A DNA stretch of 64,000 bases from Pseudomonadota bacterium (lineage in GTDB: Bacteria > Desulfobacterota > Desulfobacteria > Desulfobacterales > RPRI01): the NCBI GenBank assembly GCA_043825875.1, contig JBDRRF010000079.1, forward strand, positions 192,001-256,000, written 5' to 3'. The position numbers and the translations under genes are program-made. Of the stretch, positions 4,688 to 35,365 are shown piece by piece (within the stretch, counting starts at the first letter, position 1; each line of letters starts with the position of its first letter). Below the pieces are notes generated by a model, which made no database searches, was not told where the DNA came from, and saw nothing but the letters and a program-made list of their open reading frames with translations.

Positions 4688-4829
4688 GAGCCACTTTCAA
4701 AACGTTTCAGTTTGGTCAAGCTCAAGGCGGGCGATAATTTTAACCACAGGAATACATGGAGTATTTCGAGGATTAAAATTTGAGCCCAACGCAGAAATCG
4801 GCCAAAATGGGGCGTTTTGCAATTGGCTC
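4688..4829 (+). repeat. 142-bp MITE-like element, copy 1
   Basis: Terminal inverted repeats GAGCCACTTTCAAAACG ... CGTTTTGCAATTGGCTC; near-identical to copies at 5450, 14813 and 22854. Confidence 0.9.
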
Positions 4830-5449: not shown

Positions 5450-5591
5450 GAGCCACTTTCAAAACGTTTCAGTTTGGTCAAGCTCAAGGCGGGCGAAAAT
5501 TTCAACCACAGGAATACATTAAGTATTTCGAGGATTGAAATTTGAACCCAACACAGAGATCAGCCAAAATGGGGCGTTTTGAAACTGGCTC
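5450..5591 (+). repeat. 142-bp MITE-like element, copy 2
   Basis: Same sequence and terminal inverted repeats as copy 1. Confidence 0.9.
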
Positions 5592-14812: not shown

Positions 14813-14954
14813 GAACCACTTTCAAAACGTTTCAGTTTGGTCAAGCTCAAGGCGGGAGAAAATTTCAACCACAGTAATACATAGTGTATTTCGAGGATTG
14901 AAATTTGAGCCCAACGCAGAGATCGGCCAAAATGGGGCGTTTTGGAACTGGCTC
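14813..14954 (+). repeat. 142-bp MITE-like element, copy 3
   Basis: Same element; flanked by ATACT on both sides. Confidence 0.9.
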
Positions 14955-22853: not shown

Positions 22854-22995
22854 GAGCCAGTTTCAAAACGCCCCATTTTGGCCGATCTCTGTGTTGGGCT
22901 CAAATTTCAATCCTCGAAATACTCAATGTATTCCTGTGGTTGAAATTTTCGCCCGCCTTGAGCTTGACCAAAATGAAACGTTTTGAAAGTGGCTC
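22854..22995 (-). repeat. 142-bp MITE-like element, copy 4 (inverted)
   Basis: Reverse complement of copies 1-3; ATAA on both flanks. Confidence 0.9.
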
Positions 22996-29371: not shown

Positions 29372-30085
29372 TTACCATATGCCAGGTAGAAGCCTGTAGC
29401 GGGTATCTTCGGCATATGCCTTATAACCTTCCAATTCTTTGTGGAGGGTGCGATCCTCAAGAGCGGTTCTAATAGTGAACAATAGCATCAAAGCACCGGC
29501 AGGAAAAAATGTCCACCAGGAACCCAGGATCAAGGGCATTGCTGCTAAGAATATGATGTAGGATGCGTATCCGGGATGTCGAACGATACTGTATGGTCCC
29601 GTTGTAACAACTTGATGTTCACGATCATTTTGTATGCGTACGAATTGTTCGAAATGTGCATTTGTGATCATAGCCCATGTACCGAATGGCCACGTTAGAG
29701 CCAAGAGACCAAACCCGATATAAAGCGTAGCAAGAGACATGCCAGACCATCCAAAGCGCCAGTCCAGACCTGCGACAACAGGCGCAATCAGCTCCTGGAT
29801 AACCATCCAGCATAATGTGAACAGTTTATCAAATGTCTTTACACCGCTATGCGAAGTTCCACGATGATTGAGCGTTTCCGGGACTCGTTGAGCGAGTATA
29901 ACAAGCATAATGATTTCCAAAACTAATGTGGAAATGATCCAGATCCAACCCCGTACCCAATGAACGGTACCAGCTGCAACAAAGAGAATCACCGCATACA
30001 CAAGGATAAGACTTATACGATGAATGGCATACCAGTAGCCATGTTTATCAATTTTTGTACCCATATTTCTCCCTTCTACATTCAC
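29372..30085 (-). CDS. Isoprenylcysteine carboxylmethyltransferase family membrane protein
   Basis: HQVVTTGPYSIVRHPGY, RTALEDRTL, YRLLPGIW. Confidence 0.9.
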   Translation of the reverse strand: MNVEGRNMGTKIDKHGYWYAIHRISLILVYAVILFVAAGTVHWVRGWIWIISTLVLEIIMLVILAQRVPETLNHRGTSHSGVKTFDKLFTLCWMVIQELIAPVVAGLDWRFGWSGMSLATLYIGFGLLALTWPFGTWAMITNAHFEQFVRIQNDREHQVVTTGPYSIVRHPGYASYIIFLAAMPLILGSWWTFFPAGALMLLFTIRTALEDRTLHKELEGYKAYAEDTRYRLLPGIW

Positions 30086-30270: not shown

Positions 30271-30340
30271 TAGTAATATAATACTAAGAAAGACATCTGA
30301 TAGAAACTACCTAACCAAATAGCGGCCCCGATATCCCCCT
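30271..30340 (+). repeat. Gene-end repeat R1
   Basis: CTAAGAAAGACATCTGATAGAAACTAC...CCCCGATATCCCCC. Confidence 0.85.
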
Positions 30341-30371
30341 TGCGTAGCTTTTCTTTTTGAGACGCGTATTC

Positions 30372-31484
30372 CTATACAGCACTTAAGACCATATCATACT
30401 CAGGTGCCATGTTCAGCCAGGAATACTGTTCAATACAATGGCGGAAATTCTGCTGTCGGATCGTCTCGATCTCCCGCAAGGACCATGCAAGTTTTTCAAC
30501 GAGTTCCTGAAAATCATCGTAAAAGAGTTCAGGATACTCTTCATAAGGAACAAGCTCCGGATAAGTAAGACGCTTTGGCAATAAGGGATAACAACCACAA
30601 TAGAGGGCTTCAACAAGACTCGCTCCGAAAAAATCGTGGTGGGATGTCACCGGTACGATGTCGGCGCGATAAAGCCACTGTGCGTATTCCAAAAATTCCT
30701 CAGCATACCCATAGTGAACAACCTTGTTTCCCAACTTCATGCGAGCCGTCTCAAAAATAGGGCAGTTTTGGCGGAAACTTTCTCCAAGAATTGCAACACG
30801 AAAATCCAGACCTTGCTCGTTCAGCACAAAGAGGGCCTGGAAGAATTCATCAGGATTTTTATCGTATTCCCAACGATGGTTCCAAAGAATCAGTGGAGCG
30901 TGATCGTGATGTTCTTTACTCTGTTGTTGCAGCTCAGGATTCTGAAATTTCTGAAAATCTACTCCGAGAGGTAACACCCTGCTTTTGTCTCGAATGGTTG
31001 CTACTGTTCCCAACTCGTTGCAATCGGGGAATTGTTTCAGGAAGCGGGGTAATTCGTCAAAAAAGCTTGTGTAATGATACTGTGAGTTGAACAACACCGC
31101 ATCTGCCGCAAGCGCAGAGCTATAATTGATAAATCCATAATGTTGATCTCGCTTCTGTAGAATATCTCTATCCGTAGGCAGCCTGGGATAACATATTTGG
31201 CTTTCGTGGAAATAGATCGCAGCAGGAATCGCAGAGGTCTTGTCGCGAGTCAAGGCCAGAAAGGTTGTCAAATCGAGCATATCAGAGACAAGAAACATAT
31301 CCGGCATCGCACCGGACTCCAAATATTTTTTTGCCAGAGTAACTGCGCCGCCATGCATACGCCACTTCCAATGATTCCCACTGAGACGCAGAATGTCAAT
31401 ATTGTGTTCGCTATAATGAGCGTATGCTGTTGCCCACGCTGCATGCGAACCGGTAAAAAAAGGTTCAATTAGTGTAACATTCAT
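30372..31484 (-). CDS. GT-B glycosyltransferase, DUF3524/GTDC1 family
   Basis: EPFFTGSH, HWKWRMHG, YFHESQ, WNHRWEYDKNP, DFFG..VEA. Confidence 0.88.
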   Translation of the reverse strand: MNVTLIEPFFTGSHAAWATAYAHYSEHNIDILRLSGNHWKWRMHGGAVTLAKKYLESGAMPDMFLVSDMLDLTTFLALTRDKTSAIPAAIYFHESQICYPRLPTDRDILQKRDQHYGFINYSSALAADAVLFNSQYHYTSFFDELPRFLKQFPDCNELGTVATIRDKSRVLPLGVDFQKFQNPELQQQSKEHHDHAPLILWNHRWEYDKNPDEFFQALFVLNEQGLDFRVAILGESFRQNCPIFETARMKLGNKVVHYGYAEEFLEYAQWLYRADIVPVTSHHDFFGASLVEALYCGCYPLLPKRLTYPELVPYEEYPELFYDDFQELVEKLAWSLREIETIRQQNFRHCIEQYSWLNMAPEYDMVLSAV

Positions 31485-31543
31485 TACGATTCTGTACTAT
31501 CCTATTGGTCTGTTGATAATTCTGTATGTCCATAGATAATGGG

Positions 31544-31596
31544 CTAAGAAAGACATCTGATAAAAACTATATAACTAAAGGTCGTGAAATCCCCCC
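31544..31596 (+). repeat. Gene-end repeat R2
   Basis: CTAAGAAAGACATCTGATAAAAACTATATAACTAAAG...ATCCCCCC. Confidence 0.85.
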
Positions 31597-31610
31597 AGGT
31601 GATACCTGTA

Positions 31611-32936
31611 TTATTTTACTTTTCCATTCACTGCCTCTATGGTCACAAACATTTCATCTGTTAATTCGCCATCCGTAACTTTAAATAAGAATCGAAATAA
31701 GCCGGCAGAACCCGGTTTCCATGAAAAAGATCCACTTAGGGAATCAAATGAAACATCTGAAGGAACAGATGATCCATCTGCCATATCAATTGAATAGGTT
31801 AATTCATCTCCATCATCATCTGTGGCTTCAACAGTAAAGGCCACTAAAGTTTTCTTTTTTACGGTAATGTCTTGCCTTTGTGTAAAAACTGGCGCTGAGT
31901 TTGGAATAATTGGTGTTAACAGTAGTCCTTTTCTTGAACCATCATCCAAATCTATGTATCCTGTTATCCAGCCGGATTCATTTATGTCTCCAATATATGT
32001 TCCCACAATATTTAGACCATCTATATTTAAGATTAATTCATTTATTTCCTGTTCGGGAACATTATAGATAAAGGCACTTTGGGTTTGTTCGGATGACGTC
32101 ATAACACCAAGTATTATTGTGCCGTCACCATTGATAGCGGTACAGGAGCCGGACTCAAACCCTTGAGGTAAATCAATTAAGGTTGGAATTGAATCCGCTG
32201 TTTGCCAATAGCACGGTATCTTTAATCCGTTATATAATATTGAGCCTATAATATTCCCAATGTTATTTATCTTCGCAACTATATAATCTTCATAATTTGG
32301 ATGTTCTGCAAGTAATCTTTCTCCTTCAGTCTTGTGATAGATGAATGATTTTTTTTTATTCTTACCGGCTATATATATATCACCATACCCAATGGCATAA
32401 CCATTATCATTTATACTTAGGCCATGTGAATAATGATCCAAATTTAAGCTTTGACCCATTTCTAAAATCCCGGTAGTTTCTGAATAATATTGCGCAGAAA
32501 GATTAAAATCTGATATGCCAGTCCCAACTACTTCATTAATATTATTTATTGAATTTCCGTCCATTCCGATATATTGAATCAAATTATCCCGGTAGTTCCA
32601 AATATATCCATCATCACCGTTGCTTGGGGCTAGCATTCCACAACTTAATCCATTATCATTGAGATCACATAAATATCCATTCTCAATTGGAAGTTCATAT
32701 ATAATGTCCAAATTCATATCCCATACATAAGCAACAGTATTTAAGAGGCTGCTTGGTCCAATATCATAACAAAAGCCAACAACCTCCCCTGAGTTATTTA
32801 TGTTTCCCAAAACAGAATATTGTTGCCCATTAAATGAATCTTTTAATGTTATTTCATACTCAGTTGCTTGTCCAAAATTTTGTAATCCCAAAAATACCAC
32901 TAACGCTAAAAGTATGCCTTTAATTTGAGTCTTCAT
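31611..32936 (-). CDS. Secreted repeat (beta-propeller-like) protein with C-terminal Ig/cadherin-like domain
   Basis: Signal peptide; repeated IN..G..VG motifs; NSAPVF...ATDDDGDELTYS...VTDGEL. Confidence 0.75.
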   Translation of the reverse strand: MKTQIKGILLALVVFLGLQNFGQATEYEITLKDSFNGQQYSVLGNINNSGEVVGFCYDIGPSSLLNTVAYVWDMNLDIIYELPIENGYLCDLNDNGLSCGMLAPSNGDDGYIWNYRDNLIQYIGMDGNSINNINEVVGTGISDFNLSAQYYSETTGILEMGQSLNLDHYSHGLSINDNGYAIGYGDIYIAGKNKKKSFIYHKTEGERLLAEHPNYEDYIVAKINNIGNIIGSILYNGLKIPCYWQTADSIPTLIDLPQGFESGSCTAINGDGTIILGVMTSSEQTQSAFIYNVPEQEINELILNIDGLNIVGTYIGDINESGWITGYIDLDDGSRKGLLLTPIIPNSAPVFTQRQDITVKKKTLVAFTVEATDDDGDELTYSIDMADGSSVPSDVSFDSLSGSFSWKPGSAGLFRFLFKVTDGELTDEMFVTIEAVNGKVK

Positions 32937-33037
32937 TTTAAACCTCCCGACAGTTTCAATGTTATTATTAAGAGAATAGATCCTTTCCGTTATTTATTGT
33001 CTATCCACTAATTCAAAAATCAGGATATGCTTATTCA

Positions 33038-33345
33038 TTATTTAGTTTTTGATCTAATCTCTTGCTTGGCTACGTCCTTAGAACCATAAGCCTTTAAGTA
33101 AACCTCTTCGTATTTTACACTCCACCATAACAGCTCGATAAATATATTGTTCCTCCACCGCCCTTTGCCATCCATGCTGATTCGTATCTTGTTTGCTTTA
33201 AGAATTCCGGTAAATGCTTCCGAAGTAAATTGACTGCCCTGATCGGCATTGAAAATATCAGGCTTCCCAAAACGTATTATTGCCTCTTCAAGCGCCTCTA
33301 TACAAAATAAATTATCCATCGTGGTAGACACACGCCAGGATAAAA
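33038..33345 (-). mobile_element. IS3-family transposase fragment (integrase core), truncated
   Basis: LSWRVSTTMD, KPDIFNADQGSQFTS, ISMDGKGRW, SVKYEEVYLKAY; N-terminus missing. Confidence 0.88.
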
Positions 33346-33510
33346 AGAAAATATTAGGGTCGCATCTTAAATGTTTATTTTTTTTAATTCTATTGGCACA
33401 ACCTTTTAGCATGCGGTCACTCTGTATCTTATTTGCAAATTAAGTTTACTAGTTTAATACGCACCTAATACTACCCCTTATTACGCTTCTTTCTTTTTTA
33501 ATTTCCTTTA

Positions 33511-33577
33511 TAGTAATATGCTAAGAAAGACATCTGATAAAAACTATATAACTAAAGAACACCCCCGATATCCCCCT
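33511..33577 (+). repeat. Gene-end repeat R3
   Basis: TAGTAATATGCTAAGAAAGACATCTGATAAAAACTATATAACTAAAG...CCCCGATATCCCCC, directly abutting GTTAGGC at 33579-33585. Confidence 0.85.
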
Positions 33578-33588
33578 GGTTAGGCACT

Positions 33589-34110
33589 TTAATGCAACTG
33601 CATCAATAGCTTATTGAGAAGCTTAGTTTCGTACCTATTAAAATAATTTTTAAGTTTGAAGCTCATTCTTTCTTTATAATTTTTTTGCATATCTAAAGCT
33701 TTAATCATATTCTCTGGGTTTTTTGAACGCAAAAGTTTCTGCAATTCCTCATCTCTTTGAATAATGGCATGGGATGATATTGTTATCTGGCGTTCTGCGC
33801 AAAATTCGGCAAGCTCAACGAAATTATTAAATTTATTGACTACCGTAGTATCCTCTCTCCTGTCGCTTGAATATGAATATATTCGATAACCATCTTCATC
33901 AAGAACAATATGTGAAGCATCACTTCTTTCTGCTAATGGTTCATATTTCTTACCTATAAAAATTGGGTAGTATCTTGTCTTGAACATCAACTCGCCTATA
34001 TTATGAATACCAGCTTTAAGCTTTTCTTTCTTGGGGGCAGGGAGCCCGAGACTTCTTATCGAGCCGTTTAAAATAAGCCTACAAATACTTTCAATTATTA
34101 TTTTCTTCAT
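33589..34110 (-). CDS. Hypothetical protein (gene cassette ORF)
   Basis: 173-aa ORF bounded on its coding strand by GTTAGGC upstream and GCCTAAC downstream. Confidence 0.7.
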   Translation of the reverse strand: MKKIIIESICRLILNGSIRSLGLPAPKKEKLKAGIHNIGELMFKTRYYPIFIGKKYEPLAERSDASHIVLDEDGYRIYSYSSDRREDTTVVNKFNNFVELAEFCAERQITISSHAIIQRDEELQKLLRSKNPENMIKALDMQKNYKERMSFKLKNYFNRYETKLLNKLLMQLH

Positions 34111-34125
34111 GATATTAATTCCGTG

Positions 34126-34255
34126 GCCTAACGCTCCAAATCACCGAGTGCAAATGGCTTTCACCAAATTATGCAAAAGCCAAAAAGCGTCGATGAATAA
34201 TGACTTGTTAAAAAGACCCACGGCCTTTTGCATCCGGTGCATTTGGCGGTTCGGG
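34126..34255 (-). other. Integron attC recombination site (130 bp)
   Basis: Minus strand: R'' CCCGAAC, 5-nt spacer, L'' AATGCACC with an extra G relative to L' GGTGATT, extended stem, R' GTTAGGC. Confidence 0.8.
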
Positions 34256-35316: not shown

Positions 35317-35365
35317 TTACTACACAGTCTCTTTTCTCCGGTGCGAAGATAAATGAGATAATATT

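Follow-up and report, generated by a model that had tools for sequence, protein, structure and literature searches.

The locus and its three repeats

The present analysis deals with a stretch of 64,000 nucleotides (nt) from a genome of the order Desulfobacterales (GenBank assembly GCA_043825875.1, contig JBDRRF010000079.1, positions 192,001 to 256,000 of the forward strand), designated the window, and with a short repeat that occurs three times within it, as the copies R1, R2 and R3, and that probably derives from mobile elements of the TIRYT/TIRtron type. The genome has a size of 4.77 Mb in 118 contigs, and the window is part of contig C79. In the following, G000 denotes the genome under study, G008 a congener, G082 a genome of another family, and C with a number a contig; X2, X3 and X4 are metagenome runs, L100 is a contig of a metagenome-assembled genome (MAG) of an uncultured member of the Desulfobacterales, and L184 is a metagenome contig. 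Positions given without a contig refer to the window.

On the plus strand, the 26-nt core of the repeat occurs with no more than one mismatch each at 30284, 31544 and 33521, and core matches were obtained in none of 100 dinucleotide shuffles of the sequence. R2 and R3 have an exact stretch of 38 nt in common, and R1 and R2 are 77 % identical across 44 nt. All genes of this stretch are located on the minus strand, and the three copies point in the same direction as these genes. The end of the repeat that is C-rich on the plus strand follows the stop codon of an upstream minus-strand gene at a distance of about 32 nt for R1 (gene 30372-31484), about 14 nt for R2 (gene 31611-32936) and about 12 nt for R3 (gene 33589-34110). 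An earlier note on this DNA, made from the sequence alone, had described three copies in the same orientation at about 30284, 31544 and 33521, C-rich ends some 10-30 bp from the stop codons of three unrelated minus-strand genes, and the heptamer GTTAGGC on the plus strand at 33579-33585; all of these features were recovered. The locus is composed as follows.

30272..30339, minus strand: R1, probable solo TIRtron left end of about 68 nt; outer edge (G-run) at 30339, inner edge at junction J (between 30271 and 30272)
31548..31596, minus strand: R2, probable solo left end of about 49 nt, without the inner GGGGAC box
33470..33576, minus strand: first part of R3, about 100 nt, probably a left end and its leader, in which the start codon has decayed to ATA
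33345..33469, minus strand: second part of R3 (together forming the "long form"), possible relic of a second left end, which would belong to another TIRYT subfamily and includes the remains of a start codon
29372..30271, minus strand: ICMT gene (29372-30085) and the region upstream of it up to J; Pfam ICMT/PEMT; 96 % nucleotide identity to contig C125 of G008 and syntenic with G008
30340..31547, minus strand: glycosyltransferase module, comprising the gene 30372-31484 flanked by 63 nt on its upstream and 32 nt on its downstream side
31611..32936, minus strand: lineage-specific gene for a secreted protein with immunoglobulin-like (Ig) domains; Pfam He_PIG/Big_9
33053..33343, minus strand: internal fragment (291 nt, rve) of an IS3-type transposase gene, without ends of the insertion sequence (IS); Pfam rve, E = 7.5e-12
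33579..34131, minus strand: integron-type cassette, which begins after GTTAGGC (34131-34125), contains the gene 33589-34110 and ends with GCCTAAC (33585-33579)
34126..34255, minus strand: attC-like imperfect hairpin upstream of the cassette, whose ends pair over about 25 bp with bulges

Anatomy and distribution of the repeat family

A profile built from the copies, which are termed units below, revealed a family of 12 members genome-wide, located on 5 of the 118 contigs: three on C79 (those of the window), three within 16.6 kb on C91, three within 1.7 kb on C116, two within 0.6 kb on C33 and a single one on C109. Within each contig the orientation of all members is uniform, and for 11 of the 12 the next copy is no more than 17 kb away. 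A weaker sister group is present on C28, C110 and C17. Ahead of the 12 units no conserved target sequence was found, and in particular no target tetranucleotide.

Read on the minus strand, a unit consists of a G-run, the sequence GATATC, a GGGGAC box, an A/T-rich stretch and, after a purine-rich stretch, an ATG, which has the position of a relic start codon about 54 nt beyond the GGGGAC box. The units carry GGGGACGT or GGGGACAT, which agree with the published motif GGGGWSAS at 6-7 of its 8 positions, R1, R2 and R3 being more decayed. The units are unstructured, as the predicted folding energies of the DNA are -3.2 kcal/mol for R1, -2.4 kcal/mol for R2 and -6.2 kcal/mol for R3, with z-scores of +0.25, +1.58 and +0.11, respectively. 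Since the copies form no hairpin, they are neither attC sites nor repetitive extragenic palindromes (REP). A search of positions 20000-45000 against Rfam at E ≤ 5 gave only three chance matches to eukaryotic families, and no family fits the units.

Relationship to TIRYT elements

According to the available portions of the study by Di Nocera, De Gregorio and Rocco (2013, PMC3733652), TIRtrons are genes resembling those for REP-associated tyrosine transposases (RAYT) that are located between long terminal inverted repeats (TIRs), many of them with the motif GGGGWSAS, and some genomes hold moderately abundant families of solo, dimeric or clustered TIRs. The corresponding proteins were assigned to subclass 2.1 of TnpA-Y1 and equated with TIRYT of Di Nocera 2013, as stated in the accessible text of Quentin (2018, PMC6006769). 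In these portions of the two papers no TIRYT biochemistry and no other experiment was found.

A connection of the units with such elements is indicated by several comparisons. On the MAG contig L100, the core is present in inverted orientation on either side of a gene for a protein of 335 amino acids (aa), which has a Y1_Tnp domain and a weak match to Bac_DnaA_C. This contig came from a pattern scan of a collection of genome contigs with 17 specified bases, which yielded 103 loci, a number that by estimate is close to the chance frequency; by profile, the element was present in 1 of the 103 (L100). In other genomes of the order, the sequence GGGACG is located 56-59 nt before the ATG in 27 of 30 TIRYT genes (searched from -80 to -40), and its inverse CGTCCC follows within 120 nt of the stop codon in 24 of the 30. 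From 55 TIRYT loci, 45 of which were usable, a left-end profile was constructed with the loci of the own genome excluded. Genome-wide, this profile finds both full TIRtrons (C79:72337 and C83:70383) and a copy on C17 resembling a miniature inverted-repeat transposable element (MITE), and in the same search it detects the unit C116a with E = 0.0012. When the units were scored against 3000 random genome segments of 160 nt, 9 of the 12 were above every control, the controls matching or beating a unit numbering 1 for C116c, 3 for R1, 5 for C116b and 70 for R2. The first part of R3 reached 7.2 bits, above all 3000 controls, and R2, which retains only the outermost 49 nt, is counted as a member of the family because of its identity to R3. 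In the reverse direction, a profile of the units hit the left ends of none of 30 TIRYT loci at the level of the order and none of 27 at the level of the genus, since the sequences are too diverged. On comparison by eye, the units come closest to the left ends of the TIRYT lineage represented by C79:72412 and contig C163 of genome G011.

There is thus good sequence support for the view that the repeats represent the left terminal repeat and leader of TIRYT/TIRtron elements, small elements in which TIRs headed by GGGGACG enclose the gene of a Y1 (HUH) tyrosine transposase with a DnaA-like helix-turn-helix at its C-terminus, and the proposal that they are ends of a mobile element agrees with the homology of the copies to TIRYT left ends. 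All 12 copies are solo and co-oriented, and no inverted pair brackets a gene, which fits the "single" class of dispersed TIRs of Di Nocera 2013 and not a complete TIRtron. The repeat type is already known, and it is kin of the REP/RAYT systems. A loose resemblance to ends near REP-associated tyrosine transposases had also been suspected in the earlier note, and the kinship holds. Among the 12 copies only the unit C91a has a RAYT gene in its vicinity; it is located 270 nt upstream, on one side only, of a RAYT gene passing the NCBIfam model NF047646 (89 bits, cut-off 80); the label "REP-like" has to be given up, as the units contain no palindrome.

For the second part of R3 the evidence is more modest. 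In one alignment it matches the left ends of the TIRYT genes on contig C134 of G008 and C83 of G000, which suggests a relic of a second left end; the TIRYT left-end profile does not detect it. The long form of R3 is also present in G000 at C91:32198-32428 and partly in G008.

Of 17 genomes of the genus, 14 have TIRYT homologs, as do 62 of 121 genomes sampled from the order. The genome under study contains three such genes.

C79:72412-73416: TIRYT gene, intact
C83:70454: TIRYT gene with one stop
C17:2373-3353: TIRYT gene inside an Rhs gene, cut by the contig end

In G008, a decayed TIRYT remnant is located beside junction J. The related element on C17 of about 150 nt possesses both ends and resembles a MITE; a classification of the units themselves as MITEs was rejected, as they have one end only and not TIRs at both ends. 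TIRYT elements or units interrupt genes of the Rhs/YD-repeat type at C17:1-3354 and C33:400-1100: on C17 the full TIRYT gene stands just before the DPxGL-type end of the Rhs core, and on C33 a segment of the Rhs core is duplicated on both sides of the unit. At many TIRYT left ends the outermost 13-70 nt are tandemly duplicated two to five times (L189, L190, L195, L197, L198, L206, L215, L259 and L264), and the same holds for the units C116b and C116c.

Edges of the repeats and origin of the neighboring DNA

All copies have an identical outer edge, marked by the G-run, and their inner edges are ragged, leaving lengths of about 68 nt for R1, about 49 nt for R2, about 100 nt for R3 and at least 103 nt for the copy on C109. 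The region syntenic with G008 and with X2 and X4 contigs begins at 30271, which delimits R1 to 30272-30339. The product of gene 30372-31484 contains the Pfam domains QTMAN_N and Glycos_transf_1, the former (PF12038, E = 9e-57) being the N-terminal domain of tRNA-queuosine mannosyltransferases. The gene was found in none of 16 congeners, and its relative in G082 shows 88 % identity at the aa level and 90 % at the nt level, the likeness extending over 30340-31511; in contigs of X3 a sequence about 95 % alike extends over approximately 30338-31547. From these limits, the module can be placed at 30340-31547, which leaves only 31548-31596 for R2. Its absence from all 16 congeners and the 88 % likeness to a gene of another family argue for a recent horizontal acquisition.

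The Ig-domain protein was likewise found in none of the 16 congeners, and the DNA of its gene had no match in 400 other genomes of the order. Judged by such comparisons, the foreignness of the genes is clear, and the glycosyltransferase module, the Ig gene and the cassette would represent foreign or lineage-specific cargo; the statement that the copies cap unrelated genes also stands, the gene order not being syntenic in relatives. The fragment of the IS3-type transposase gene resembles IS copies of congeners solely within 33053-33343 and looks like filler DNA. An assignment of the unit as an end of an IS3 element was dismissed, as the adjacent rve piece is an internal one of 291 nt and IS3 sequences are absent next to the other 11 units; an origin as a fragment of a tRNA gene or att site, or as a variant attC, was rejected as well.

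Outside the window, the comparison with G008 gave further breakpoints. At the C109 copy, G008 shares the DNA of the inner side only, from a point within the unit. At C91c the break lies 80 nt outside the unit, within the neighboring gene, and the exchanged piece comprises the last 17 codons of that gene plus the unit. Both the C79 and the C91 loci are mosaics whose pieces have been rearranged between G000 and G008. On the right, the 5-kb segment specific to G000 ends 7 nt past the stop codon of a DUF6485 gene, at 35359 of the window, and no unit is present there; at the same border in G008 (C146:116445) a gene for a TonB-dependent receptor follows instead.

The integron-type cassette and the attC sites

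Upstream of the cassette, the hairpin at 34126-34255 ends in GTTAGGC and has a weak folding z-score of -1.1 to -1.5. The cassette gene 33589-34110, which belongs to no Pfam family, ends at a distance of 3 nt from the exact complement GCCTAAC, and another 2 nt separate GCCTAAC from R3; the remainder of the attC expected beyond GCCTAAC is missing. Between 34119 and 33579, a contig of X2 shows a likeness of about 90 %, which ends at the last base of the core. Thus, the claim that an attC is truncated immediately after its inverse core is plausible: the attC of the cassette may have been cut off at this point, next to R3. The cassette protein was encoded in none of 400 other genomes of the order, and an intact attC was not recovered from them.

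A second case is found on L184, where a unit lacking its first 18 nt directly follows the GTT box of an attC-like hairpin with a z-score of -3.1 on one strand. In total, 2 of 14 examined copies are located at an attC, which is too few to claim attC targeting, as the earlier proposal did. That the repeat itself is not an attC proved right: the units have no hairpin and show no imperfect inverted repeat of the type R''/L''...L'/R' with RYYYAAC and GTTRRRY boxes. BLAST of the attC against the genome retrieved nothing else. Pattern scans for attC were unreliable, as a strict version gave 2 hits genome-wide and a loose one missed the attC at 34126 and took up a repeat of about 124 nt.

Four integrase genes score above the cut-off of TIGR02249, namely C51:167791-168738, C68:56602-57549, C107:658-1617 and C79:66182-67111. 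The nearest of them lies about 125 kb from the window on the same contig, and none is nearby. The intact TIRYT gene C79:72412 is situated 5 kb from an integrase gene.

The 3' end of the ICMT gene

The ICMT gene had been thought to end next to a REP-like end as well. In the window, the likeness of its 3' flank to the start of a unit is limited to about 7 nt, and the proposal does not hold there; in G008 a long-form unit with 94 % identity to R3 extends over the stop codon of ICMT and takes the place of the 5' part of the following gene, and the same joint between ICMT stop and unit is present in contigs of X2 and X4, which stem from two further studies, so that a full copy abuts the stop codon in these three cases. 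A possible identity of the region upstream of ICMT as the N-terminus of a tyrosine recombinase received no Pfam support and was dropped.

Possible explanations for the array

The most probable explanation, to which we assign a probability of about 0.6, is that the locus is a nest of solo TIRtron left ends in a strain-variable region and not a dedicated machinery for gene capture. Elements or their ends, spread presumably by a TIRYT enzyme, would have inserted repeatedly in this region; each copy would have kept its outer repeat, the longer ones also the leader and the remains of the transposase start codon, and lost the transposase gene and the right end. The sharp outer edge would then correspond to the terminus of the element, and the ragged inner edges would result from later deletion and patchwork joining to other DNA, i.e. 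the acquired glycosyltransferase module, the IS fragment and the second left-end relic. The seams may have arisen by breakage, nesting or recombination at the ends. A nest of this kind is in accord with the ragged inner edges, the stacked relic in R3, the IS filler and the mosaicism between G000 and G008. The way in which the array arose is not well supported, unlike the identity of the repeats; the seams give a hint that TIRtron ends attract new DNA.

Several observations weigh against such a nest. Insertion followed by random deletion poorly explains the seams, in view of their exact edges, their specificity for the outer side and their positions after stop codons: the likeness of the glycosyltransferase to outside relatives stops exactly at the outer edge of R1 and the inner edge of R2, a comparison of G000 with G008 shows differing flanks at R1 and at the C109 copy solely on the outer side, and 8 of the 12 copies begin -1 to 59 nt past a co-oriented open reading frame of at least 80 codons. 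No inverted partner of the subfamily was detected with a 28-nt core at up to 6 mismatches. An intact TIRYT gene with the subfamily's own left end was present in none of the 17 genomes of the genus and at none of 7 metagenome loci. The 7 loci were the yield of a pattern scan of metagenomes; two of them have units and none has a transposase gene. Moreover, the local head motif GGGGACG(T/C) is one position off the published GGGGWSAS, and R2 by itself scores poorly on the TIRYT profile, 70 of the 3000 controls being higher.

The seams have led us to consider a cassette-like capture, in which solo left ends serve as docking sites, a TIRYT protein of the HUH type nicks at the outer edge, DNA of the size of a gene is joined there, and blocks of "unit plus gene" are stacked head-to-tail, like cassettes at attC/attI, and may be excised between two consecutive outer edges; we regard it as unlikely. 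It can draw on the sharp seams at outer edges in three comparisons (glycosyltransferase and R1 against G082/X3, inverse core and R3 against X2, and ICMT stop and unit), the last of these joints being present in G008, X2 and X4 and absent from the window, on the glycosyltransferase module, which is gene-sized, has flanks of 63 and 32 nt and is foreign to the genus, and on the co-orientation and clustering of the arrays. The terminal box, which is repeated in tandem at many TIRYT left ends as well as at C116b and C116c, and the 5'-truncated unit on L184 straight after the R' of an attC-like hairpin, point in the same direction. Against this stand the absence of any excision or circle joint from the contigs of the probable source run (where rare variants would drop out), the fact that an identical block of "unit plus gene" never occurs in two contexts, and the ragged inner edges, which would require an illegitimate join for each block. 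The break at C91c, 80 nt outside the unit and in the neighboring gene, and the reversed polarity at ICMT in G008, where the conserved side is the outer one, fit no better, and the available portions of the literature on TIRYT contain no TIRYT biochemistry. In a related proposal, TIRYT would cut at the outer edge, and co-oriented arrays of "unit plus gene" would grow without an integron integrase and mingle with integron cassettes, as both use single-stranded substrates; this appears improbable to us. With no excision joint, no re-used block and no assigned enzyme, an active role of the repeats is a minority possibility, in which a TIRYT nuclease or host repair may join new DNA at the outer edge. 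The idea expressed in the earlier note that the repeats are recombination sites which repeatedly add genes is not borne out; neither an excision joint nor a re-used "unit plus gene" block was observed, and joints of the predicted excision of genes were absent from the source-run contigs, contigs and not reads having been compared.

Units or former TIRtrons might alternatively act as portable homology, providing dispersed homologous stretches at which host recombination, either homologous or of the illegitimate type facilitated by homology, swaps the DNA between or next to them, for example after uptake from related strains. The mosaics at C79 and C91 reshuffled between G000 and G008, the exchange at C91c that takes 17 codons along with the unit and the break inside the unit on C109 would suit this mechanism, which we nevertheless consider rather doubtful, because units of about 49-120 nt that are 77-95 % alike are poor substrates for RecA and because the nearest relatives of the glycosyltransferase carry no unit, so that its entry cannot have been directed by homology at both ends. 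A joining of contigs from different organisms at a shared repeat during assembly is a concern in a genome of 118 contigs, all the more as the source-run contigs are interrupted within the 38-nt core that R2 and R3 have in common, as well as across the IS and long-form repeats, so that the joins at R2 and R3 rest on the assembly. Such an artifact is very improbable in view of the uniform depth in the probable source run (27.2, 27.0 and 26.8 across ICMT, glycosyltransferase, Ig gene and cassette), of a 7.2-kb contig of that run which bridges R1 and both its flanks, and of another which runs from R2 through the Ig gene to the IS fragment; moreover, a swap between R2 and R3 would yield a closed circle and not a linear alternative. 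In these contigs there was no joint that skips or circularizes a unit-bounded block, with the reservation that contigs drop rare variants. Hardly any weight is given to a regulatory module, i.e. a promoter or leader recruited ahead of cargo genes. In TIRYT left ends, a TTGACA located about 22 nt inward of the head motif does precede an A/T-rich stretch similar to a -10 region, and the units point at downstream genes, but in this subfamily the -35 position is decayed and no sigma-70-like site is predicted on the minus strand in R1-R3, R2 retains just 49 nt, and there is no Rfam match. A promoter scan found no minus-strand site in the units, and the total for the region was below the mean of shuffled sequences.

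Comparison with known systems and significance

With TIRtron/TIRYT elements the family shares a gene with Y1_Tnp and a DnaA_C-like helix-turn-helix between inverted repeats with a GGGG-rich head and no hairpin, as well as the dispersal of solo, dimeric and clustered TIR copies at moderate number. It differs in that only left ends are present here, with leader and relic start codon and without inverted partner, that the head reads GGGGACG(T/C) instead of GGGGWSAS, and that acquired modules show exact seams, one of them at the inverse core of an attC, which the available portions of Di Nocera 2013 and Quentin 2018 do not mention. REP/REPIN-RAYT systems also comprise short repeats derived from the flanks of related Y1 transposases, located mostly just past genes and in clusters; in contrast to them, the units have no palindrome (folding z ≥ 0), form no inverted doublets and amount to 12 copies only, and no GTAG tag was noticed by eye, a dedicated search not having been made. 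Similarities to integron cassettes consist in unrelated, gene-sized and promoter-poor genes that all point the same way and have a repeat behind every stop codon, and in true attC-like hairpins and four intI genes in the genome, whereas the units lack the R''/L''/L'/R' symmetry and the hairpin, the nearest intI is about 125 kb off, and R3 interrupts an attC. IS200/IS605, PATE and IS91/ISCR elements share HUH chemistry and insertion in a fixed orientation, and ISCR elements pick up genes by one end; the units differ in having neither subterminal hairpins nor a conserved target tetranucleotide, and with respect to IS91/ISCR no Y2 rolling-circle transposase was noticed beside the inspected copies, without a dedicated search.

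TIRYT elements are widespread, as the counts for the genus and the order given above illustrate, yet little studied. The locus described here offers base-exact cases of probable solo TIRYT ends at the borders of acquired genes and of a broken integron attC. If this link were causal, these ends would provide environmental bacteria with a hitherto unrecognized way of incorporating new genes into variable regions; if not, the result explains a class of "cassette-like" repeats and calls for caution in designating such repeats as new recombination sites.

Other repeats

A short motif of the type GGGGTCAAACCTTGA occurs in tandem near several units and near the TIRYT left end on C83 (C116:90000-92500, C33, C17 and C83:70340). 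A repeat of about 190 nt (L034:798-984, corresponding to C91:31621-31807 of G000) is present in dozens of copies, with more than 50 matches each in G008, G011 and G013, and is far commoner than the TIRtron units. The repeat of about 124 nt mentioned above has inverted ends (TCAAAACG ... CGTTTTGA), folds end to end and resembles a MITE or an attC in appearance. In the window it is located at 4697-4820, 5459-5582, 14822-14945 and 22863-22986, the last copy being inverted, and in G008 it was found at L051:1853-2003, L052:9643-9813 and L052:16680-16829, with 86-96 % likeness between the genomes.

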